A DNA stretch of 45,156 bases from Candidatus Microgenomates bacterium (GCA_025451755.1 JANWJT010000018.1:1-45156), one strand, 5' to 3'; shown: positions 10,570 to 35,709, counted from the stretch's first letter. Program-made: numbers and translations. The notes: generated by a model not told the origin, from the sequence alone.

Positions 10570-12720
10570 ATGAAAATTAAAAAATATATATCGATACTAT
10601 TAATAATATTACTAGTCCAGTTTCAGGGCAGTTCTGTTTTTGCTTTTGAAATACCAAGTGCGCCTACAGCTCCTTCAGCTCCTGAATCAACGGCTCAGGC
10701 ACCTACAGCTCCTTCAGCTCCCGAAGCACCAGAAGCTCCAACTCTTGAGGAAGTTTTAGCGGATTCAGATCCAATTCCTACTGAGATAGAAGAAGAGGAA
10801 GACGAAGAGGATAAAGACGATGTTCCACAAATTCAAGAAACAATATCTCAGAATCAAGAGCAAGAAGGAGTCAATGATTCCGGGAACGTTGGGGACACAG
10901 CTATAGATACTGGTAATGCAAATACCACAGGTGCATTAACAACCTTAGGGAATACAAATGTTAATAGCTCTGGTGTAGGAGAGGATGGAAATAGTGTGGG
11001 AGTTATAAATTCCGGAAATGGAACAGATTCTACAAATACTGGTTCGGTTTCTCTATCGGGAGAAAATAATACATTTCAGGATAACAGTGCTGTGGTTGGA
11101 AGCAATCTTAGCCTATCCGCTGCAAGCGGAGATAATACTTCGGATAATAATGTAGGGAATACAGCTATAGATACTGGTAATGCAAATACCACAGCAACAG
11201 TTATTACAGGAGTAAATACAAATGTTGATGGAATTATGGTTTCTGAATTTAATATAGCGGATGACCATATTGGGGATATTGTTCTGGATTTTGGTGCAGG
11301 TTGTGTTTTTGGATGTGGCCAGACAGATTCAATTTTAGCACAAAACTCTGATAACGGATCAAATTCTACGAATAACGCAGCTGTTTCCGATACGTCCAAT
11401 ACTAATACTTTTCAGACTAACGATGCATCAATTGAAAGCAATCTTACACTTGATTCGGATTCTGGCAATAACTCTACAAGTGCCAACACTGGAGGAAATT
11501 CAACGATCGAAACAGGAGATGCGAATGTAGGCGCCAACCTACTGACATTCGTAAATAATAATGTCGCAGGAAATGTTGTTTTTGGAGTTGTAAATATATT
11601 TGGGGAATTGGTAGGAGACATATTTTTCCCTGAAAGTGCCCTATCCTGTTCAACTTGTGGCGGAGATGCAACCGCTGTAAATTCTGGTAACGGCTCGGAT
11701 TCAACAAATAATACAACAGTAAGCCAGACAAATTCCGATTCAACATTTCAGTATAACGACGCAAATATAGAAAATAATTTAGTATTATCAACAGCAACCG
11801 GAGGAAATGAGGCATCTGGCAATACAAACGGAAATTCAACAATAGAAACTGGAGATTCTGAGGCTATAGCTCAAGTTTTAAATATTGCGAATATGAATGT
11901 AGTTGGAGGAGATATGTGGCTAGTTTTGGTTAACGAAGCAGGGCAGTGGATTGGAAAAATTTTGGGGGCATCCGACGGAGCAAATTACGCTGGATCAACT
12001 GGCACAGAGTTTGCAATAGATGAAAATGGTGAGATCACAGCAATAAATTCCGGAAATGGTTCGGGTTCGGATAATAACTCAAGCATCTCTCAGAATACAA
12101 ATAACACTGTTGTTCAAACAAATACTGCAAATGTTGTAAATAATTTAAATCTTTCTGCAAATACCGGCGGGAATACGGCAAGTAACAATACTGGAGGAGA
12201 CTCAAAGATTAAAACAGGAGACGCAAAAATAATTGCAAATGTAGTTAATTTTGTAAATAACAATATAGTCGGAAACGGAAGATTGTTTGTAACGGTAGTC
12301 AACGTGTTTGGAAGTTGGATGGGGGATTTCGTAACGCCAGAGTCTCACAAAGAAAATAACAATGCAGGAATTGGGGGAGAACAAGCAGCAAGCCCGTCAG
12401 CTTCGAGTAATAATCAGCCAAATAATAATTCTTCTGGCGGTAGCTCTAATTCGTCCAGCTCATCAAACAACTCTATACAATTAGTGAGTGGAATAATAAG
12501 TGGTCTTTCAAGAAATACTCACGTATTAGGAATTTCTGCGCAAAACGTAAACGAAAGTCAAATACTTGGAGCAAATAATACCGGAGAAGCAGCTAGTTCC
12601 CAAAATAAAAAAGTAACGATTAATTTGGCATGGGTGATTTTATTTGTTCCAATTCTATTAACATTTTTTCTTTTTAGAAAAAGATTTATTTCAGCAATAA
12701 GATTGGTGGCTCGAAAATGA
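10570..12720 (+). CDS. Secreted Asn-rich repeat protein of the same family (about 4.5 repeats) with C-terminal membrane anchor
   Basis: Signal peptide (VFA), APTAPSAPE repeats and acidic tract, same repeat motif, S/N linker, C-terminal TM + RKR. Confidence 0.8.
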   Translation: MKIKKYISILLIILLVQFQGSSVFAFEIPSAPTAPSAPESTAQAPTAPSAPEAPEAPTLEEVLADSDPIPTEIEEEEDEEDKDDVPQIQETISQNQEQEGVNDSGNVGDTAIDTGNANTTGALTTLGNTNVNSSGVGEDGNSVGVINSGNGTDSTNTGSVSLSGENNTFQDNSAVVGSNLSLSAASGDNTSDNNVGNTAIDTGNANTTATVITGVNTNVDGIMVSEFNIADDHIGDIVLDFGAGCVFGCGQTDSILAQNSDNGSNSTNNAAVSDTSNTNTFQTNDASIESNLTLDSDSGNNSTSANTGGNSTIETGDANVGANLLTFVNNNVAGNVVFGVVNIFGELVGDIFFPESALSCSTCGGDATAVNSGNGSDSTNNTTVSQTNSDSTFQYNDANIENNLVLSTATGGNEASGNTNGNSTIETGDSEAIAQVLNIANMNVVGGDMWLVLVNEAGQWIGKILGASDGANYAGSTGTEFAIDENGEITAINSGNGSGSDNNSSISQNTNNTVVQTNTANVVNNLNLSANTGGNTASNNTGGDSKIKTGDAKIIANVVNFVNNNIVGNGRLFVTVVNVFGSWMGDFVTPESHKENNNAGIGGEQAASPSASSNNQPNNNSSGGSSNSSSSSNNSIQLVSGIISGLSRNTHVLGISAQNVNESQILGANNTGEAASSQNKKVTINLAWVILFVPILLTFFLFRKRFISAIRLVARK
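10897..11194 (+). repeat. Identical 34-nt intragenic direct repeat (10897-10930 and 11161-11194)
   Basis: ACAGCTATAGATACTGGTAATGCAAATACCACAG twice, encoding TAIDTGNANTT. Confidence 0.85.
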
Positions 12721-13838
12721 TAAAGAAAATAATTACATTAATGGCTTTTTTTATAGTAAGTATATCTGTGGCGGCACCGGCTATTTTTGCAGACGAAATT
12801 TCTGTATCAAATAATGGTGCAGGATCAAGCAACACAATAGTGATCGATACCAGTTCTACTTCAACTGTTGAGCAGGCAAATAATGCAGATATACAAAATA
12901 ACGTAGATGTAACAGCAAATACGGGAGATAATTCTGTTTCCTCAAATAATGCAGACGCGCATATAATAACAGGATCTATAGATAGTACATCTTCTATTAA
13001 TAATGAAAATATAAACTCAAATTTTGCAGAAAATCAGGAATGTGGTTGTAGCGATGAAACATCGTCTGCAATAGATGGAAATGGATCCGACTCTATAAAT
13101 AATCTTAACTTATCGTTTATAAATGCTATGAATGTTTCTCAGGAAAACTCAGCACAAATTACGAATAATTTAACAACAAATGCAAGTACTGGTAATAATC
13201 AGGCAAACAATAATAATGGGAATGTTGGCATAGAAACCGGAAATATTACCTCATTAATTTCTATTATAAATAAAAATATAAATTTAAATTCTGACTTTCA
13301 GGGAAAGAATAATGGCTCAATATCAATTTCCATTAGCAATAATGGGAGCGGATCTATTAATAGTATAGTTATGTTTTTTGGCAATAGTAGTAATTATGTA
13401 AGTAACAATTTTACAGACATAAAAAACAATGTAGTACAGAATTTGAATACTGGAAATAACATTGCAAATGGTAATAATGGGGCAGTCTTAATAGTAACTG
13501 GAGATATTATGAGTGTTATAACAATTGGAAATGAAAATATAAATGGTTCATTCTTCAAAGAGCAATGCAACTGCTCCAATATTATTCCGCCTCCTGGTGG
13601 GGGAAATCCAATGCCAATAGGAGACCCGCCGGTAGGAGCGCAGCCTTCTTCAAGCGGAAGTGGATCTTCGATAGGTGGTCCTGGACAAATATTGGGAGCT
13701 GCAATCGGTCAGATTCTGCCCGCAACAGGAGCTTATTGGATATTGCTAATGACAATTCTTGCCATTACAATGTTCTTAGCGGGTGGGGTTTTGCGCTTTG
13801 GTTCGGATTCTTCTCCTCCCTTAGCATATGCAGTCTAA
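12717..13838 (+). CDS. Secreted Asn-rich repeat protein (3 repeats) with LPATG sortase signal
   Basis: Signal peptide (IFA), same repeat motif, Pro/Gly/Ser linker, ILPATG + hydrophobic helix; ATGA-coupled to the upstream gene. Confidence 0.85.
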   Translation: MIKKIITLMAFFIVSISVAAPAIFADEISVSNNGAGSSNTIVIDTSSTSTVEQANNADIQNNVDVTANTGDNSVSSNNADAHIITGSIDSTSSINNENINSNFAENQECGCSDETSSAIDGNGSDSINNLNLSFINAMNVSQENSAQITNNLTTNASTGNNQANNNNGNVGIETGNITSLISIINKNINLNSDFQGKNNGSISISISNNGSGSINSIVMFFGNSSNYVSNNFTDIKNNVVQNLNTGNNIANGNNGAVLIVTGDIMSVITIGNENINGSFFKEQCNCSNIIPPPGGGNPMPIGDPPVGAQPSSSGSGSSIGGPGQILGAAIGQILPATGAYWILLMTILAITMFLAGGVLRFGSDSSPPLAYAV

Positions 13839-14385
13839 AAGACTCAAGCACTTAATCGGAAACGCCTTAATGGCGTTTTCTCTTTTATTGCTGGTTTTTA
13901 TTTATTATCCGATTTTATCTTTATACATTTTTCCGCCTGCTATCGATAAAAAAATTTTAGATAAGTCATTCTATGTAGAAATTCCAAAAATAAATATTGC
14001 ATCGCAGATTATTCCAAATGTAGATCCTTTTATCGAAACAGAATACAGAAAAGCGCTTGAAAGAGGAATAGCTCATGCAAAGAATACACCTCTACCCGGA
14101 GAAAAAGGAACATCTTTTCTTTTTGCCCATTCATCAGATTCTCCGTGGAGAATTACAAGATACAACGTAGCTTTTTTTAGATTGCCCGAGCTTAAAAAAG
14201 GAGATAATATAAAAATAGTAAGAGATGGAAAAGTATACGAATATAGAGTTTCTGATACTAAAACTGTGTGGCCCAATGAAGTTAATTACTTGCTAGGCAA
14301 TAGGAAAGATCAGCTTATTCTTCAAACTTGTACGCCGATTGGCACTTCCTTGCAAAGACTTCTGGTCTTTGCAGTCCTCAAATAA
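13828..14385 (+). CDS. Sortase
   Basis: N-terminal TM; LFAHS (His), LILQTC (Cys), QRLLV (Arg). Confidence 0.92.
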   Translation: MQSKRLKHLIGNALMAFSLLLLVFIYYPILSLYIFPPAIDKKILDKSFYVEIPKINIASQIIPNVDPFIETEYRKALERGIAHAKNTPLPGEKGTSFLFAHSSDSPWRITRYNVAFFRLPELKKGDNIKIVRDGKVYEYRVSDTKTVWPNEVNYLLGNRKDQLILQTCTPIGTSLQRLLVFAVLK

Positions 14386-14431: not shown

Positions 14432-15040
14432 CTACGGAGTAACGTTAAGTGTATTCGATGGGGCAGTAATATTTGCTGTTACGTTGGAAGTACTATTTCC
14501 AGTCGTTACATTTACTGTGCCATTGGTGTTGCTGTTGGCACTATTATTGCCGGTTCTTGCTCTAGATCTAGCTTTCTTTACTTTAACCTTTGTTGTGTTG
14601 TTCTGACCAACGGTTGTTGGATTGGTCGTATTCGACGTTACGTTGCTTGTCGAACCAACTCCATTGCCCGATACAGTAAGATTGACCGTACTGTTGCATG
14701 GGCAAGTCGTTACATTGGCCTCGTTAAAACTTCCATCTACGGTAATATTTACGATAGAGTTTGCATTTCCGGTGTTGATTGTAACATTTCCACCGGTATT
14801 ACTATTTGCATTATTGCCACCTGTTTTTGCCGAAGAAGATATATTTATTGATATATTGGTGTTGTTATTCTGCGTAATATTGGTTGAATTATTTGAGCTA
14901 ATATTTACGCTGTTGTTTGAATCGCTACCATTTCCTGAAATATCAACATTTACATCTGCGTATACGCCTCCGGGAAGAAGGGCAGAAAGCATAAGAGTAC
15001 CAATAGTGAGTGTTGTTACCAGTCTTTTTTTGTAATCCAT
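14432..15040 (-). CDS. Secreted Asn/Thr-rich repeat protein (2 repeats, second one basic), same family as 9229-13838
   Basis: The track GTG at 15049 is part of the SD AAGGAGGTGA, so ATG 15040 (MDYKKR) is preferred; signal peptide ending VYA; two SGNG...QNN...TGxN...NT...TGN repeats joined by CPC. Confidence 0.8.
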   Translation of the reverse strand: MDYKKRLVTTLTIGTLMLSALLPGGVYADVNVDISGNGSDSNNSVNISSNNSTNITQNNNTNISINISSSAKTGGNNANSNTGGNVTINTGNANSIVNITVDGSFNEANVTTCPCNSTVNLTVSGNGVGSTSNVTSNTTNPTTVGQNNTTKVKVKKARSRARTGNNSANSNTNGTVNVTTGNSTSNVTANITAPSNTLNVTP

Positions 15041-15081
15041 TTTATTCACCTCCTTTCATCGTTTATTTTAAAATTTGTTAT

Positions 15082-16116
15082 TTATAACTCGCAGTTTATT
15101 TCTGATTCCGCATTGCATGTGTCAGTATTAAATCCGCCGTCTGCGTTATCTATTCCAGATCCGCCTATTAAGTTATCATCGCCTGAATCACCATTTAGGG
15201 TGTCGGAGCTATCGTTTCCTTCAAGAAGATCATTGTCGTTGCCTCCCTCAAGAAGATCCGCGTTCTCATTACCAATAAGATGATCGTTTCCATCTCCTCC
15301 ACGCAAGGTATCTGCTCCCAGTCCTCCAATTATCAGATCATCGCCAGCCTCTCCATAGATAGAGTCGGCTCCATCGTTACCAAAGATAACATCATTACCT
15401 TCTCCTCCGTGAATCGAATTTTCGGCTCCGGGTCCTCCAAGAATGCAATCGTCTCCGCCATTTCCATTTATAATATCGGACCCCTCAAGTCCCATGATAA
15501 GGTCGTTTCCGCTAGTTCCGTTAAGTGTTTCTCCCTGAGCAGTTCCTACGATGGGATCAGGAGAAAAATTTATTCCTTCACACTCCGTAGGTATGTCTAC
15601 CGAAATACCTATAATAAGATCAAAAACTACTTTTGCTCCCTGGTACTCATTTCCTGAATCGGATGGGAAAGTAGCTTTAAAACTGTACGTAGTTGAGTTA
15701 CCATTATTAATTGTCGAAAGAAACAGCCCATTTGGTCCGCCACTGTCGTCAAAAAATTCCTGAAGTGTTTTTGGTCCAGTCGGACTTGTTCCGCCATAAA
15801 GATCATTTCCTCCTTCGGAAATTACAAAGTCTAAAATTGATGCAAAGCTTGCAATTTCTTCCGTTTTAATACCTCTTATGCCAACGTTTCTTGGAACAGT
15901 TCCGCCATTTGCCACATCAACACTCCTTTCCTCTACGTCGCCTGGCAACATATTTGAGACAACAAAAATCGGATCGCCGTCCGGAACTCCCCAGACAACA
16001 TTTAAATCTCCAACTGCCCTTACCGTTGAAGGGTTAAAAAGATTTGGGGCAAAAAATTTAACAATCGTTCCGAGGACCAAGACCAAAATAAAAATTTTCA
16101 ATAAAATTTTTTTCAT
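15082..16116 (-). CDS. Secreted TasA/camelysin-like domain protein with C-terminal RTX (hemolysin-type Ca-binding) repeats
   Basis: NMLPGD...R.V.V.N.G and FPSDSGNEYQG...F resemble TasA/CalY; many GGxGxDxLx nonapeptides; lacks the FSDTETS N-terminal strand. Confidence 0.75.
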   Translation of the reverse strand: MKKILLKIFILVLVLGTIVKFFAPNLFNPSTVRAVGDLNVVWGVPDGDPIFVVSNMLPGDVEERSVDVANGGTVPRNVGIRGIKTEEIASFASILDFVISEGGNDLYGGTSPTGPKTLQEFFDDSGGPNGLFLSTINNGNSTTYSFKATFPSDSGNEYQGAKVVFDLIIGISVDIPTECEGINFSPDPIVGTAQGETLNGTSGNDLIMGLEGSDIINGNGGDDCILGGPGAENSIHGGEGNDVIFGNDGADSIYGEAGDDLIIGGLGADTLRGGDGNDHLIGNENADLLEGGNDNDLLEGNDSSDTLNGDSGDDNLIGGSGIDNADGGFNTDTCNAESEINCEL

Positions 16117-16120
16117 AAAT

Positions 16121-16885
16121 TTACGGCGCCTCTGTTGGAGTTAGTGTTGCACTCGGAGTTGCTATAGAGAATACGTTTGATGCCTGGAAAACATTCTGAG
16201 CACTTGTCTCCGTATCGCTTTGAAGTGCAAGAGTAATCGGAATAATAAGTCCAACAGCAAGTAGAGAAACTATGACTTTAAGTCCTGTTGATCCCAATCC
16301 TGAATGAGGAGAGGGCATTAGATTAAAATCATCCTCACGTCTCTTATTACTTTTTTTAGCGTTTTTTACATGCTTTATGATGTTAAACATTTCCATTAAT
16401 ATTACGAGCACTGCTGGGAAAATAATAAGAAGCGAAAATCCAACTTTAGATTTTGCAAAAGCCAAAAGTTTTCCTACAGCAGGAATAGTAATAAAGGTTT
16501 TTCCTAATATATTTTTCTCGCTAACAGTCCAACCGTCAGGCTCATCATTTGCATCTCCTTTTGTCTTATAGGCAACACCATTATTATTTGTTTCAGCGCT
16601 TACGATTCTATGTGTGATTATTGTTTTTGAGTTCTTCTCGGACCTAAAAGCTATAACATCTCCCTTATTGTATAGAGGTGTTGTAAGAGGAACAGGAGAA
16701 TCTAATTGATTTGCTGAGCGAACTACAACAATTGAGCCAACATCAATTGTGGGAGTCATAGAGCCAGAACGGACAATAAGTGCCTGATTACCAAAATAGG
16801 GGATTGCAACGTAAGCAACTCCCACTGCAATAAAAACAAGTGCTATTGATAGTAGAATATTTATTGCTTTGAATACTTTTGCCAT
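16121..16885 (-). CDS. sipW: SipW-type (ER-like, S26B) signal peptidase I with C-terminal extension
   Basis: VRSGSMTP (catalytic Ser), ITHRI (His), TKGDAN...D motif; adjacent to SipW-cognate substrates. Confidence 0.9.
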   Translation of the reverse strand: MAKVFKAINILLSIALVFIAVGVAYVAIPYFGNQALIVRSGSMTPTIDVGSIVVVRSANQLDSPVPLTTPLYNKGDVIAFRSEKNSKTIITHRIVSAETNNNGVAYKTKGDANDEPDGWTVSEKNILGKTFITIPAVGKLLAFAKSKVGFSLLIIFPAVLVILMEMFNIIKHVKNAKKSNKRREDDFNLMPSPHSGLGSTGLKVIVSLLAVGLIIPITLALQSDTETSAQNVFQASNVFSIATPSATLTPTEAP

Positions 16886-16945
16886 ACATGCTTTTCTCTC
16901 CTTTTAATTGTTATTTAATATATTGCCTTGAACCTTTGGGCCCTT

Positions 16946-16976
16946 AGGGCGGGGAACTTATTCTCTCACCCGCCCT
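16946..16976 (-). promoter_or_regulatory. GC-rich intergenic hairpin without U-tract downstream of the TasA-like major subunit
   Basis: On the - strand AGGGCGGG...CCCGCCCT (8 bp), followed by AAGGGCCC rather than poly-T. Confidence 0.55.
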
Positions 16977-16996
16977 TAAACTGAATCCATTAAGGA

Positions 16997-17905
16997 TTAA
17001 ATGGATGGTGTTGGCGTAACTTCTGGCCAAACTGGTGTAAAGTTCTGAGCACATGTAAATGTGCCGTTATTTCTAGACTGTACTGCGTAGAACTGTAAAT
17101 CTCCTATTACAGAATCAGTCTGAGCAATATTATCAATTGCTTGTGCACCAGAACATGTAAATCCAGTTCCTCTGTTTATTGGATTATTTAGTGCTGGGTT
17201 TGGATCGTCTCTGTCAGGACGTGGATCCGGTGTCAGAGTTCCAAAGCACCATTGCTTTCCAATGTATTGAGTTGTAGCCCCCTCTACTGGTCCTGATCCT
17301 CCCCAAATATTGGTGGATGAATCTGCCAATGCAATCTGTCCAACTTGACCCATTCCACTGATTGGACCTTGTAGGAATACATTCTCGTTTACTTCAAAGA
17401 CATTATCTCCATCGTCACCCCAGAAGACAATATTAACTTGACTATCTAGGTCACCGTCTGTGGTGCCGTCATTATCATCATTGTTTAGACCAGACACTTC
17501 GTCTTCTGGTTCTGTAATATCATTGTCTTCGTCCTCGGTAATTTGAGCTGCTGCGCAAAGATATGCATCATTATTGTCAACAGTCAATGAGATTGTGTCT
17601 TCTCCAAAATCACCTGGCTTAATGTCTTCAAAGTTGAAGAACTTTTCGAGAACTAAATCCGTAGAATCCCATGAAGTTCCTTCATTTGCGACAAGAACTC
17701 CTGTTGGATTCAAAGTATCTGTCAAATAATCAATTACATAACTCTCGTTATCTATCTTAAGATCAATAGCTCCTGCTACCAATGTGTTTCCCGTTGATGT
17801 TTCGGTATCAGAAAAGAATGCAAATGTCGCTCCGATTATAAGAGCGGCAGCTGCAAGTACTACTGCAATCGAAAGTAATATTTTCGTATTTATTAAGTTT
17901 GTCAT
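16997..17905 (-). CDS. TasA-like protein with SipW-cognate signal peptide, candidate major subunit
   Basis: GATFA-FFSDTETSTGNTLVAGAIDL signal/N-strand; FNFEDIKPGD motif; perfect SD AAGGAGGTGA at 17913-17922. Confidence 0.85.
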   Translation of the reverse strand: MTNLINTKILLSIAVVLAAAALIIGATFAFFSDTETSTGNTLVAGAIDLKIDNESYVIDYLTDTLNPTGVLVANEGTSWDSTDLVLEKFFNFEDIKPGDFGEDTISLTVDNNDAYLCAAAQITEDEDNDITEPEDEVSGLNNDDNDGTTDGDLDSQVNIVFWGDDGDNVFEVNENVFLQGPISGMGQVGQIALADSSTNIWGGSGPVEGATTQYIGKQWCFGTLTPDPRPDRDDPNPALNNPINRGTGFTCSGAQAIDNIAQTDSVIGDLQFYAVQSRNNGTFTCAQNFTPVWPEVTPTPSI

Positions 17906-17935
17906 TTATTTTTCACCTCCTTTCGTCAATAGATT

Positions 17936-19369
17936 TTATTCGCAAAGGTCTAAGTTTTGTAAAGCTGTTTGTAAACCGCTGTAGTTACTAACCGAGAAAT
18001 AATGACTTGCGTCTGTGGCGATCCCCTGTAAATAAGATGTATTAACATCAGCTCCAACTCCGACTACGAAAACTTCACCACCGCCTGATTTAAACGATGT
18101 TGCAGAAGCCGCCGCAACATCATCGGCAGTTGAGGAGGGAAGTGGTCTGTTTGGCTGACCATCGGTTACTATAATCATCTTGTCCGGAGATGTTCCATCT
18201 GCTCTATCATTTACTCCGCTTAATTCTCCTGCTGCTAGGTCAATACCTGATTTAAGATTTGTGTAGCCTCCCGATACGAGTGCGTCAATTGTTGCCTTAA
18301 GCGTAACAATATTTGAGGTTAATCCGTGGTTTAAGTCTCCTGTAGTTGCAAAACTACTCTTGCCTGCATGAATTCCTAACGGCGTTAAGCCAAGATCATC
18401 AACGAACGCTTTAGCTGCTGTTTTAAGCTGTCCAAGCTCTGTTGAATTGATGCTTCCTGATTTATCCAAAACAAGCATTACATCAGCCTGGCTACAGGCA
18501 AGTGGCGTTGGCGTTGGAGTTAGCGTAACAGAAGGAGTAGGAGTAATTGAAGGCACAGTGCCGTTACAAGTAAAGCTTAAATTATTTCTTTGTTGTATTG
18601 CGCTAAAGCTTATGTCTCCCATAACAGAATCAGTCTGCGAAGCATTATTAACTGCTGAACCATCGCAAAGAATTCCTGAATTAACAATTGGATTTACCCC
18701 TAGACCTTCTGCTACCGGATTTTGCGTGAGTGTTCCAAAACACCACGCTTTGCCTATAAAGTATGTTTCACCGCCAATTAGAGGATCTCCGGGATTACCG
18801 CCGACATTATTTGTTACAGAATCCGCTAAAACCAAACTGCTGTCTAAAACGCTTGATGCAGATCCTGATGCAATAATAGGTTCATTAGTTTCTAAAACAT
18901 TATCTCCGTCATCTGTCCAGAAGGCAAAATTAAGTAATCCACCAAGCTCACCGTCGTTTAAGTCTTGATCAGGGTCATTGCAGGTAGGATCATCTGCCTG
19001 CTCCGGCTCTGTGCAGTCAACATCATCGTCTTTTGTAAGGGTCATATCCATGCACGCCCATGCATTATTGGTATCAACGTGAATGCTAATAGTATCTTCT
19101 CCCTCGTCACCGGGCTTTATGTCGGTAAAGTTAAAGAACAGATCATCTGAGGTAAGATTTTTAAGTTCCCATGTAGTTGCCGAAGATAGCTCGTGATTAA
19201 GATAACTTGTGTTATCAATCTTAAGATCTATTGCTCCTGCAGTTAAAACGTTGCCGGTTGATGTTTCTGTATCGGAAAAAAAAGCGAAGCTTGCTCCTAT
19301 TACTAAAACTGCTGCAACAAGTACTGTTGCTAGGCTAAGTAAAATTTTTGTATTTATTAAGTTCGACAT
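17936..19369 (-). CDS. TasA-like protein with SipW-cognate signal peptide, PT linker and C-terminal VWA domain
   Basis: GASFA-FFSDTETSTGNVLTAGAIDL; FNFTDIKPGD; MIDAS motif DKSGS...T...TDG. Confidence 0.88.
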   Translation of the reverse strand: MSNLINTKILLSLATVLVAAVLVIGASFAFFSDTETSTGNVLTAGAIDLKIDNTSYLNHELSSATTWELKNLTSDDLFFNFTDIKPGDEGEDTISIHVDTNNAWACMDMTLTKDDDVDCTEPEQADDPTCNDPDQDLNDGELGGLLNFAFWTDDGDNVLETNEPIIASGSASSVLDSSLVLADSVTNNVGGNPGDPLIGGETYFIGKAWCFGTLTQNPVAEGLGVNPIVNSGILCDGSAVNNASQTDSVMGDISFSAIQQRNNLSFTCNGTVPSITPTPSVTLTPTPTPLACSQADVMLVLDKSGSINSTELGQLKTAAKAFVDDLGLTPLGIHAGKSSFATTGDLNHGLTSNIVTLKATIDALVSGGYTNLKSGIDLAAGELSGVNDRADGTSPDKMIIVTDGQPNRPLPSSTADDVAAASATSFKSGGGEVFVVGVGADVNTSYLQGIATDASHYFSVSNYSGLQTALQNLDLCE

Positions 19370-19385
19370 TTAATTTTATTTCTTT

Positions 19386-19457
19386 TTAATCACAAAAAAA
19401 CCCGCATATTTCTATGCCGGGTTTTGTCTTTGTACAAATTAATTTGAGTAATTTCAT
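19386..19457 (-). CDS. Possible 23-aa leader peptide MKLLKLICTKTKPGIEICGFFCD spanning the leader terminator
   Basis: ATG lies 4 nt after the GGAGG of the conserved hairpin; the frame runs through the terminator and stops 16 nt before the first structural gene. Confidence 0.3.
   Translation of the reverse strand: MKLLKLICTKTKPGIEICGFFCD
19394..19425 (-). terminator. Intrinsic terminator in the 5' leader of the TasA/SipW operon
   Basis: - strand AAAACCC-G-GCATA-GAAA-TATGC-GGG-TTTTTTT. Confidence 0.75.
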
Positions 19458-19484
19458 ATTTCCTCCGTTTGCGGTCAGAAACAC
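19456..19484 (-). promoter_or_regulatory. Conserved leader RNA hairpin, copy 2
   Basis: - strand GTGTTTC-TGA-CCG-CAAA-CGG-AG-GAAATAT; core identical to copy 1, outer stem different in sequence but still paired. Confidence 0.7.
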
Positions 19485-19492
19485 TTTATTTT

Positions 19493-19515
19493 AAAAAACC
19501 AGCAAAGTGCTGGTT
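19493..19515 (-). terminator. Second terminator-like hairpin in the same leader
   Basis: - strand AACCAGCA-CTT-TGCTGGTT-TTTT. Confidence 0.55.
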
Positions 19516-19655
19516 ATTAAAACTTATAAATTATATTTTTAGTAAAACTGGCAGAGTTATTCATATGATTAAACTATTGAATTTTTCCCTCTGAGTGGGC
19601 AGTTCAAAGAGAGATCTTTTGCCGTTTTTGTAGATATCGTGACAAAAGTACGACC

Positions 19656-19686
19656 ATTATAAACAATCTTAATGAAGTCCTGTCAA
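19656..19686 (-). promoter_or_regulatory. Candidate promoter of the TasA/SipW operon
   Basis: - strand TTGACA-19 nt-TATAAT; both hexamers are consensus but the spacer is long. Confidence 0.5.
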
Positions 19687-19761
19687 GACGGACAAACTAG
19701 ATAAAACTAATACTAAATTGTATTTGAATATAAAGTCCATTCGGATGTATAATGTATTTCT

Positions 19762-20772
19762 ATGGCGCAAGTTTTGGGGCTTATGCTCCTTTCTCTTTTT
19801 ATAACTTTTATACTTCTTATCCCATTTATAGACTTTTTGTATAAATTAAAAGTAAGAAGGCAAAAACAAAAAACTGTTGATATTTTTGATAACCCTACTC
19901 CTGTTTTTGATAAATTCCACGGCTGGAAACAAGGGACGCCATTTGGCGGTGGCGTACTAATTATTGCCGTAGTATCGATTCTTACCCTTTGGTCCCTGGG
20001 AATATTGAGTGTCTCTGTGGATTTATGGGAAGTTTTTGTGCTTTTGTTTACATTTATATCTTTTGGTCTTTTAGGATTCTATGATGATATTAAAAAGCTT
20101 GCCAACGGTAAAGGATCTCCTTTTTTTGGTCTTAGATTCAGATATAAATTTTTACTTCAATGGATTTTAGCTCTTATTATTGGAACTATTTTGTATACTC
20201 AGTTAGGATATACCTTTATTTTTATAAAAGGTTTCGGACTTGCTAGTTTAGGTTTTTTATTTATTCCATTTGCGGCATTTGTTATTGTTTCTTTTTCAAA
20301 TGCATTTAATATTGCAGACGGTTTAGATGGTCTTGCATCTGGTCTTCTTTTAATTTGTCTCGGAGCTTTTTTAGCAATTTCTCAGGAGCAGTTTGATCAG
20401 ACTCTTAGGATTTTTATTGCTGTACTTATGGGGAGCATGGGAGCATTCTTATATTTTAATATTTATAAAGCAAGAATTTGGCTTGGAGACGTTGGCTCAT
20501 TATCCTTAGGTGCAGTACTTGCTGTTATAGGGCTTTTAACAGGAAAAATAATTGCCTTGGCTTTTATAGGAGGAGTCTTTGTAATTGAGGTCGGCTCTTC
20601 TTTAATACAAATCCTCAGTAAAAAATTTTTAGGAAGAAAGTTATTTCCTGCTTCACCATTTCATCTTTATCTTCAAAAGATTGGGTGGGATGAACCAAAA
20701 ATTGTTATGAGAGCCTGGCTTTTAGGATTTTTATTTGCAATTCTGGGACTATATATAGCTTACATCAGGTAA
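19762..20772 (+). CDS. mraY: Phospho-N-acetylmuramoyl-pentapeptide transferase
   Basis: GTPFGGG, GFYDD, NAFNIADGLDGL, LGDVGS, PFHL motifs; first gene of the dcw cluster. Confidence 0.93.
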   Translation: MAQVLGLMLLSLFITFILLIPFIDFLYKLKVRRQKQKTVDIFDNPTPVFDKFHGWKQGTPFGGGVLIIAVVSILTLWSLGILSVSVDLWEVFVLLFTFISFGLLGFYDDIKKLANGKGSPFFGLRFRYKFLLQWILALIIGTILYTQLGYTFIFIKGFGLASLGFLFIPFAAFVIVSFSNAFNIADGLDGLASGLLLICLGAFLAISQEQFDQTLRIFIAVLMGSMGAFLYFNIYKARIWLGDVGSLSLGAVLAVIGLLTGKIIALAFIGGVFVIEVGSSLIQILSKKFLGRKLFPASPFHLYLQKIGWDEPKIVMRAWLLGFLFAILGLYIAYIR

Positions 20773-35165: not shown

Positions 35166-35709
35166 CGACCCTCATCTCTCCTAGCGGCCAATACACAAAA
35201 AAAGATTTCCCAATAACAGATTTTAGCGGAACAAACGACCATTCTCTTGAATCTGAACTATATGATCTGTTGTCTCCCATAACAAAATAATTTTCCAGAG
35301 GAACTTCTACTTCTTTTCCTTCTTTTAAGAATGAACCACCGTAAGTTCTAACATCGGATTTAAGATATTTACTCTCATCAAGCATGTGCCCGTTTAAAAA
35401 AACTGATCCGTCTTTTATGTAAATTTTGTCTCCCGGAACAGCAATGACTCTTTTTATAAAATCTTTCTCTTCATCTTGAGGAGATTTAAAAACTATAACT
35501 TCTCCTTTTTTTGGTTTTTCAAAATTCAGAGAAATTATGTTTGTGAGTATATATTCTCTGTCGGTAAAATTTGGGTACATTGAAGCACCATTAACCTGGA
35601 AAGGGCGAAACAAAAAAACATAAATTACAAGAAAAGCAGCTGCGGCCAAAAGAAGGGTCTCGACAATATCTACTAAGAAAGTATAAATTTTACGCAGAAT
35701 GAACATCAT
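35152..35709 (-). CDS. lepB: Signal peptidase I (bacterial P-type)
   Basis: GASMYP (Ser), FIKRVI (Lys), GDNR..SSDSR. Confidence 0.93.
   Translation of the reverse strand: MMFILRKIYTFLVDIVETLLLAAAAFLVIYVFLFRPFQVNGASMYPNFTDREYILTNIISLNFEKPKKGEVIVFKSPQDEEKDFIKRVIAVPGDKIYIKDGSVFLNGHMLDESKYLKSDVRTYGGSFLKEGKEVEVPLENYFVMGDNRSYSSDSREWSFVPLKSVIGKSFFVYWPLGEMRVVKTP

Follow-up and report, generated by a model that had tools for sequence, protein, structure and literature searches.

For the Bacillus subtilis operon tapA-sipW-tasA, residues 28–38 are the donor strand of the fibre subunit TasA, residues 48–61 are a strand that complements the subunit's own groove in the monomer, and the part of TapA has been modelled (PMC9674648; this and the other papers are cited for the accessible parts of their text). 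TapA is the strand-donating initiator, and the stop and start codons of tapA and sipW overlap (PMC10151520). The subject of this report is a related locus at 15082–19369 on the minus strand of a 45,156-nucleotide contig of a Candidatus Microgenomates bacterium, a member of the candidate phyla radiation (CPR); the whole contig is called the window. Its four genes encode a TasA-like subunit with a von Willebrand factor A (VWA) domain, a plain TasA-like subunit, a SipW-like signal peptidase and a protein with RTX repeats. Together they are probably the operon of an extracellular fibre of the TasA type, assembled through donor-strand exchange, with the labour divided among the four parts.

Both loci include a SipW of the endoplasmic reticulum (ER) type. 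In both, the mature N-terminus of the subunits is the donor strand (here by prediction) and the body is a jelly roll (PDB 8AUR); in both, a minor protein would donate a strand without polymerising, with initiator and peptidase tightly coupled. There are also differences. The candidate initiator is fused behind SipW here, and across homologues it is followed by LTD-like, RTX-like, other or no cargo, where TapA has an Ig-like domain; its likeness to TapA is one of function, both having an N-terminal strand but lacking a pilin body, and was judged by description only. The subunits are larger, with 273 mature residues, four conserved cysteines and a DDGDN motif, and the locus adds a VWA subunit and a strand-less acceptor, neither of which is described for Bacillus in the cited parts of the literature.

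The plan published in 2025 for the haloarchaeal Tafi fibre, largely from AlphaFold models, has an initiator at the tip (TafC), an adapter (TafE), a shaft (TafA/E), a terminator and anchor (TafF) and a peptidase (TafD) (PMC11821415, PMC12337348). It shares with the predicted parts of this locus a strand-donating initiator with a non-pilin domain, a shaft, a strand-accepting terminator and a dedicated peptidase. Compared by published description only, the locus differs from it in its CPR host, in SipW/Sec-type leaders (TIGR04088) as against the reported Tat signals, in the fusion of peptidase and initiator, and in a candidate terminator with an RTX beta-roll and without a membrane span at the C-terminus; a TafG-like helper was not identified here.

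Archaeal bundling pili (AbpA/AbpB, 7UEG) also have a TasA-like jelly roll. Their likeness to the proteins of this locus is weaker than that of TasA (7UEG_A, Z 6.9 to the N-terminal domain of the RTX protein and Z 6.1 to the plain subunit). AbpB has been proposed to supply the first strand, and the loci are reported to have no dedicated peptidase (PMC9245690), unlike the one described here. A 2026 preprint on AbpX predicts tip and minor components beside peptidases (10.64898/2026.01.04.697558). Chaperone-usher pili (Fim/Pap) likewise use donor-strand exchange, with a strand-less acceptor, FimH, as tip adhesin and a special subunit for termination, but usher, chaperone and outer membrane set them apart, and the likeness of fold is no more than generic (Z 6.2 for 3JWN_H and 7SZO_H, which contain FimH).

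The logic of initiator, shaft and terminator has already been proposed for Tafi and for TapA-TasA. What is new here, and the most interesting part, is the fusion of peptidase and initiator. Open-access full text and bioRxiv, with supplements outside this scope, gave no account of a SipW–initiator fusion in which the initiator is a strand alone, none of a TasA-like protein that bears RTX repeats and lacks the strand, and none of such an operon in CPR; the supplement of PMC9245690 holds lists of TasA homologues and may include these proteins. A preliminary description of this DNA had known of no such filament in CPR bacteria. Within the searches made, this holds apart from one sentence on PF12389 in Patescibacteria, in the accessible text of PMC9245690, and does not extend to the general plan.

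TasA-like subunits and a strand-less TasA-like body

The window (contig C18) belongs to a genome (G000) of 536,454 bases in 22 contigs, 89.5% complete. The CPR setting is correct, because the named homologues of the locus proteins come from Candidatus Levybacteria, Woykebacteria and Curtissbacteria. All four elements that the preliminary description had placed in this region were found there, on the minus strand, when the genes of the window were read. A TIGR04088 scan of the whole genome gave two matches only, both of them the TasA-like subunits, and two related genomes (G001 and G025) repeat the order of the four genes. Because of these two results, the set is not a chance grouping.

The two subunits have both the FFSDTETSTGN strand and a TasA-like body, as had been claimed. 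The plain subunit matches PF12389 with 30.1 bits and TIGR04088 with 30.5 bits, and the VWA subunit matches the same families with 26.2 and 22.8 bits (cut-offs 22.5 and 19); coverage of PF12389 is partial, profile positions 3–54 of 196 for the VWA subunit and 4–100 for the plain one. They are 54% identical, have in common ...FAFFSDTETSTGN, and read T/S-F-A then FFSDTETSTGN across the cleavage site. The VWA domain itself scores 69.6 bits against PF00092 (cut-off 23.8) and has an intact metal ion-dependent adhesion site motif, DKSGS, at residue 302. The wider family of the plain subunit has 2026 clusters at E≤1e-3. Among 125 subunits the cleavage positions are A at -1 in 115 and T/S at -3 in 123.

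An AlphaFold2 model of the plain subunit, built with 93 aligned relatives, has a predicted local distance difference test score (pLDDT) of 87.6. Residues 33–48, right after the cleavage site, are modelled with low confidence, which would fit a free strand. The preliminary description had proposed a Foldseek comparison of the bodies with TasA; the TasA fibre 8AUR_A came first for the plain subunit (E 8.3e-5) and second overall for the RTX protein (E 3.3e-4). By VIA the plain subunit aligns to 8AUR_A with Z 8.5 (rmsd 3.2, 150 residues aligned), followed by monomeric TasA (Z 6.8), the Sulfolobus thread (Z 6.4) and AbpA (7UEG_A, Z 6.1). For the body of the VWA subunit, the evidence of fold is its 54% identity to the modelled plain subunit.

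Two conserved features of the plain subunit family stand apart from the strand. D-D-G-D-N at residues 164–168 has D164 and N168 invariant and the rest in at least 90% of the 93 sequences, and four cysteines (Cys 117, 220, 251 and 285) are nearly invariant; these suggest a Ca-binding site and two disulfides. Calcium is relevant too for the RTX roll and for the published AbpX fibrils.

The RTX protein matches the HemolysinCabind family PF00353 with 84.3 bits in four stretches, and its N-terminal domain has no Pfam match. Its AlphaFold2 model (108 relatives, pLDDT 92.4) is a beta-sandwich at 36–175 followed by a beta-roll. The best solved match of the sandwich is TasA: 5OF1_B at Z 10.0 (rmsd 2.7, 123 residues aligned), then 8AUR_A at Z 9.8 and 5OF2 at Z 9.6, with all other matches at Z 7.9 or less. 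Sequence comparison points the same way. In hhalign the RTX family aligns to the subunit family with 83% probability (E 9.1e-6), and residues 1–163 align to a 170-residue PF12389 protein from a Clostridiaceae metagenome-assembled genome (MAG) at 27% identity (BLASTP pairwise E 1e-10); that protein is of the ordinary type, and its gene adjoins a SipW.

What sets the RTX family apart is what it lacks. It keeps the 'AVGDL' and 'FVVxNMLPGD' strands, but sequence and family alignments gave no DTETS motif, a variable leader standing where the others have A then FFSDTETS across the cleavage site. A stretch of ca. 30 residues that comes after 'IDL' in the subunits is also missing, and it matches TasA 48–61 in position. 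The preliminary description had read the protein as a TasA-like body with RTX repeats and no strand, and both the fold and the sequence comparison agree. Because the DTETS-type donor strand is replaced by a variable leader, the N-terminal domain is labelled a putative acceptor-only TasA-like body. Such a strand-less acceptor would be a defined terminator, a part that the cited portions of the literature do not describe for Bacillus. The best solved match of the beta-roll is 3P4G_C (Z 16.0), then the CyaA RTX blocks. There is no full-length RTX toxin match (NF033943, 66.7 bits against a cut-off of 1000), and an N-terminal hydrophobic leader takes the place of the usual C-terminal type I secretion signal.

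Modelling of a donor and acceptor together, also proposed in the preliminary description, placed the strand of the subunit in the groove of the RTX protein. The mature plain subunit (30–302) and RTX residues 35–176 were folded as a complex with ESMFold2, with an alignment supplied for each. Three runs gave ipSAE values of 0.79, 0.74 and 0.76 (median 0.76), and the best of three controls gave 0.00. In the calibration, 58 of 80 solved complexes attained the mark applied, as did 2 of 110 mismatched pairs, figures that carry over only approximately because custom alignments were used for this complex. The runs share at least 96% of contacts, and the pLDDT of the partner is 91. On the subunit side the confident interface is 30–47, plus 111–112, 276 and 278–279; on the RTX side its main segments are 46–60 and 158–173. 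Subunit residues 37–44 run antiparallel to RTX 162–168 and lie beside 48–53, so that a strand sits between two sheet edges. The predicted insertion resembles donor-strand complementation.

These results bear on whether there is a fibre at all. The name of PF12389 refers to a putative metalloprotease, the motif counts as a feature of the signal peptide in TIGR04088, and the evidence covers single proteins and one modelled pair; the proteins could then be separately secreted, SipW-dependent surface proteins, either VWA and RTX adhesins or camelysin-like proteases, with SDTETS as no more than a part of the signal by which SipW recognises and sorts them. This is very improbable. The motif lies past the cleavage site, in the mature protein, and it is exactly residues 30–47 that the predicted complex inserts as a beta-strand. 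A strand-only protein stands beside a strand-less body in 8 of 41 genomes, a pairing expected from strand exchange and left unexplained by a sorting signal, and among solved structures the plain subunit best matches TasA in its fibre form.

Several points weigh against a donor-strand fibre. All of the evidence for it is computational, and the fibre is known here from genes and models alone. In both subunits the PF12389 match is confined to the N-terminal part, and the Z of 8.5 for the plain subunit is barely over the level that VIA calls common. The complex model covers one heterotypic pair, subunit and RTX N-terminal domain, and its score may stem from likeness to the solved TasA fibre 8AUR, in which case it is not independent of the fold matches. 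The interface is enriched in conserved positions of the RTX family (24 of 40 conserved positions against 30 of 102 others, Fisher p 8e-4), although this may partly reflect core strands that are conserved anyway. The tail of SipW, taken alone, scores 17.2 bits against TIGR04088 (E 0.0042), below the cut-off of 19, and was not among the matches of the whole-genome scan at E≤1. The conserved A before VGDL in the RTX family, which otherwise looks like a cleavage site, can also be explained by the 'FxAG' motif of TasA, of which the same -3 and -1 positions are part.

The strand-bearing tail of SipW

The peptidase matches TIGR02228, archaeal-type signal peptidase I, with 98 bits (cut-off 51.85) and PF10502 with 27.7 bits. 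Against NF046067, the equivalog of Bacillus SipW, it scores 114.5 bits, under the cut-off of 190; by these profiles the protein is SipW-like rather than the Bacillus equivalog. The motifs SGSM (residue 40) and THR (residue 91) we take to hold its catalytic Ser and His. Usual peptidases have two membrane segments, and this one adds a K/R-rich loop, a third helix and a strand: the hydrophobic segments are 10–28, 152–170 and 204–222, followed by ITLA and, past the putative cleavage site, LQSDTETSAQNVF... Judged by its sequence, the third helix is a SipW-type signal peptide embedded in the peptidase. The preliminary description had given SipW a strand without a body, and the 34-residue tail carries such a motif, identical to the subunit donor strand at 8 of 18 positions.

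Related genomes account for this arrangement. A survey of 41 genomes, G000 included, is the basis of the neighbourhood comparison, which had also been proposed beforehand. SipW is present in 14 of them (G000 counted). The RTX N-terminal domain is present in eight, and in all eight it is encoded next to SipW, downstream on the same strand within ca. 1.5 kb. SipW carries the tail in G000, G001 and G025. It is short in G002, G006, G023, G037 and G039, and in these five genomes the tail element is a gene of its own between those for SipW and the RTX protein, with a leader, a strand reading FF(T/S)xxxxSxxNxF after the A of the cleavage site, a PT linker and cargo, which is LTD in four of the five. 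Because the same element is a separate gene in this position in five relatives, the tail is, as read from gene order and sequence, what results when SipW is fused to a substrate encoded next to it.

The fusion is common. A search of 5.8 billion proteins gave 197 SipW matches at E≤1e-5, and at least 85 of the 120 listed, the ones in which tails were counted, have the third helix and the strand motif. What follows the motif and the PT linker was classed by regular expression: 26 of the 85 tails have no cargo, 25 have LTD-like, 3 RTX-like and 31 other cargo, LTD and RTX being confirmed by Pfam for P0002, P0035 and P0067. The closest homologue among the matches listed (86% identity) has LTD cargo. 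Recent decay of an LTD in the window was considered and rejected, as there are 4 nt between the sipW stop and the RTX start and 26 of the 85 tails are equally short. The single LTD protein encoded elsewhere in this genome, on contig C22, was rejected as a part of the system; it has an ordinary leader, a C-terminal anchor and no strand motif.

The cleavage site is kept as strictly in the fused tails as in the subunits, with A at -1 in 83 of the 85 and T/A/S at -3 in 82. Because these positions are kept, and because TIGR04088 recognises the tails of three homologues (19.6, 19.7 and 22.2 bits, all over the cut-off of 19), the fused tail is more likely still a cleavable pre-protein, on evidence that falls short of proof. 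SipW rather likely cuts it off; that it stays tethered to SipW is a possibility of clearly lesser weight. The preliminary description had put a donor-only SipW tail at the base of the filament. The donor-strand tail stands; the fixed base lacks support in that form, given the kept cleavage site and the separate pre-protein gene of the five relatives, and the tail is more likely a TapA-like initiator without cargo, cleavable rather than fixed.

A tethered, uncleaved tail could still be the base of the fibre, filling the first groove from the membrane while the secreted RTX protein caps the distal tip. We consider this unlikely, though the K/R-rich loop before the third helix does place the strand outside, TapA is reported to colocalise with the membrane (PMC10151520), and strand insertion into the RTX body is predicted by the complex model. 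Tails without cargo suit a tether more obviously than a released 30-residue peptide, but a cargo-bearing strand would be pinned between membrane and cargo. The small residues at -1 and -3 are needless for a tail that is never cut, and in five related genomes the element is the gene of a normal secreted pre-protein. A cleavable initiator is therefore preferred here.

Some further observations concern the distribution of these modules. At least nine clusters of SipW tails and of RTX N-terminal domains match in the size of their longest contig when compared by eye (6200, 4226, 17249, 238547, 6184, 3647, 4638, 51357 and 3692), which suggests that the two genes are linked on metagenomic contigs well beyond the 41 genomes. 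One contig labelled as an uncultured Gammaproteobacteria MAG (L022) encodes a TasA-like subunit with cargo, a SipW–LTD fusion and an RTX protein that likewise lacks the strand and shares 35% identity with that of the window; the label suggests a mis-binned contig or transfer outside CPR. G025 has a second RTX protein of 408 aa (L020:4196-5422) directly after the RTX acceptor gene, with a different, unassigned N-terminal domain. Like the acceptor it ends in C-D-A-E-F-E-I-S-C-E-L, and a beta-roll with this ending is also fused behind SipW in P0067, P0080, P0082, P0084 and P0092. It looks like a shuffled cargo module.

A candidate assembly route and its polarity

From the domain make-up, folds, fusion, gene order and predicted strand insertion, all obtained in silico, we infer the following course of initiation, polymerisation and termination. 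SipW, a dedicated ER/archaeal-type peptidase, would cut the leaders of both subunits after T-F-A and expose the N-terminal FFSDTETSTGN... donor strand. The plain subunit, with its strong Shine-Dalgarno (SD) sequence, is probably the major, shaft subunit. The VWA subunit is probably a minor, adhesive one; having strand and body, it could be inserted anywhere and would display a metal-dependent adhesin domain. This division had been suggested in the preliminary description, and it fits, by inference only, because the plain gene has a perfect SD and a downstream hairpin.

The C-terminus of SipW would be a fused strand-only gene with signal peptide, cleavage site, donor strand and PT linker, mostly with cargo in relatives, and would have the function that TapA has in B. 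subtilis or TafC in the Tafi fibre. Its strand would fill the groove of the first subunit and free that subunit's own strand, and polymerisation would start. By analogy with published work (PMC9674648, PMC10151520), a strand-only nucleator would displace the self-complementing strand of the monomer, and the freed N-terminal strand would invade the next subunit. Loss of the cargo in this genome would have left a minimal initiator of 34 residues. The RTX protein would accept the last free donor strand and pass none on, capping that end and displaying a Ca-dependent beta-roll; it is taken as the terminator because a TasA-like body without a strand can accept but cannot pass on.

The end that would face the cell depends partly on the RTX leader, which may be cut as a signal peptide or kept as an anchor. 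The GDL landmark is present in 105 of the 108 family members, and all 105 have A at -1 and A/V/T/I at -3. An uncleaved leader would allow a polarity like that of Tafi, in which a released initiator sits at the distal tip and the helix-anchored RTX protein terminates the fibre at the cell, as proposed for TafF. The AlphaFold2 model, where RTX residues 2–27 are one long helix followed by a low-confidence linker, is in favour of this, as is the published Tafi model, where the initiator TafC sits at the tip and TafF both terminates and anchors (PMC11821415, PMC12337348), and the A before VGDL may be structural rather than part of a cleavage site. We nevertheless regard the arrangement as improbable. 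The small residues at -3 and -1, with a proline at -6 in many leaders (by eye, uncounted), resemble the c-region of a signal peptidase substrate, and a general signal peptidase I encoded in the window could cut the leader; with the beta-roll at the membrane, an adhesive or Ca-binding role at the tip makes less sense. That peptidase lies at 35182–35661 on the minus strand and is of the general bacterial type (TIGR02227, 157 bits). A second copy (G000:C17:56550-56846) is interrupted by an in-frame TAA.

The assignment of base and tip in the preliminary description is thus one of three arrangements that the sequence data appear to allow. Its acceptor-only RTX protein is supported as an acceptor by the complex model, but its place at the tip is not readable from sequence. 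It is also conceivable, though doubtful, that SipW is an assembly platform: its strand, either tethered or cut in cis, would hold the groove of the newest subunit at the membrane, each freshly cleaved N-terminus would displace it, and the fibre would grow from the base. If this were true, SipW would be a functional counterpart of the chaperone-usher machine that consists of a single protein and needs no outer membrane, and the fusion would serve as a 'Rosetta stone' for the joint action of SipW and TapA-like initiators as a unit, also in Bacillus.

Levybacteria and other CPR bacteria have very small genomes and are believed to live on the surface of other cells, by means of attachment that are, to our knowledge, mostly uncharacterised. 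A conserved fibre kit with VWA, RTX and, in relatives, LTD domains is a candidate attachment or matrix structure. The recurrent fusion of peptidase and putative initiator (at least 85 cases among the 120 matches listed) is genetic evidence for coupled processing and nucleation.

Gene layout and neighbouring genes

The features of the locus are collected in Table 1. The VWA subunit orthologues are also first in the operon in G001 and G025. The perfect SD before the plain subunit had been noted in the preliminary description and was read again from the sequence; it is alone in this, as by eye the other genes of the operon have no evident SD and none was seen upstream of the VWA subunit ATG. The ATG of the RTX gene is 4 nt past the sipW stop, a spacing that suggests translational coupling. 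Between the plain subunit gene and sipW there is a hairpin; the 97-nt stretch that includes it has a folding energy of -25.8 kcal/mol (z -2.0; 7 of 200 shuffles as stable), and the hairpin may be a partial terminator or an mRNA stabiliser that sets the ratio of major to minor subunits. Scans of 14900–19800 gave 8 promoter-like sites (12.2 expected) and 2 terminator-like ones (3.6 expected). No site of either kind told anything about the operon, and both of the hairpins that were folded separately were missed.

Table 1. Positions of the genes, protein parts and signals of the locus in the window
Feature	Position	Strand	Description
VWA subunit gene	17936-19369	-	477 aa; TasA-like, with C-terminal VWA domain
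Parts of the VWA subunit	17936..19369	-	signal peptide 1-29, FFSDTETSTGN strand, body, PT linker, VWA 296-469
Shine-Dalgarno AGGAGGTG	17914-17921	-	perfect; 8 nt before the plain subunit ATG; read from sequence
Plain subunit gene	16997-17905	-	302 aa; PF12389 and TIGR04088
Plain subunit signal peptide (1-29)	17819-17905	-	SipW-type; TIGR04088
Plain subunit mature N-terminal donor strand (30-47), predicted	17765-17818	-	follows the signal peptide
G+C-rich hairpin	16946..16976	-	between plain subunit gene and sipW; without U-run
sipW gene	16121-16885	-	254 aa; TIGR02228
SipW catalytic part (1-175)	16361..16885	-	first membrane segment, ER/archaeal-type signal peptidase I domain, second membrane segment
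SipW third hydrophobic helix, ending T-L-A	16226..16297	-	preceded by K/R-rich loop; hydropathy
SipW strand-only tail LQSDTETSAQNVF... with PT-rich end	16124..16225	-	34 residues, with SDTETS strand
RTX protein gene	15082-16116	-	344 aa; RTX repeats
RTX N-terminal hydrophobic leader (1-34), ending P-S-T-V-R-A	16015..16116	-	sequence
Strand-less TasA-like body (35-176), predicted strand acceptor	15589..16014	-	fold, alignment, complex model
RTX beta-roll (ca. 190-344), conserved end C-x-A-E-x-E-I-x-C-E-L	15085..15549	-	PF00353, family consensus

Just upstream of the operon, behind GGAGG, is a 23-codon open reading frame (ORF), MKLLKLICTKTKPGIEICGFFCD, at 19386–19457 on the minus strand. It overlaps a hairpin at 19392–19433 that is followed by U7; the 96-nt stretch containing it folds at -18.7 kcal/mol (z -3.7), and none of 200 shuffles was as stable. 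The element could act as a leader peptide or an attenuator; alternatively, the ORF could encode a small peptide rich in Cys.

Downstream of the RTX gene by 32 nt, a secreted protein of 205 aa is encoded at 14432–15049 on the minus strand, and it may be co-transcribed with the operon. It is built of GNGSDS.../TGGN.A..NTGG.V.I.TG.A repeats, has no Pfam or NCBIfam match, and falls in Atlas clusters of hypothetical proteins, mostly from Saccharimonadota (score 0.93); repeat proteins like it flank the operon of G025. Next to it, at 12717–14385 on the plus strand, are a 373-aa repeat protein that ends in LPATG and a hydrophobic tail and, overlapped by it at the start, a sortase gene (PF04203, 82.6 bits). 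By their motifs these two are a separate sortase-anchored surface pair beside the fibre operon.

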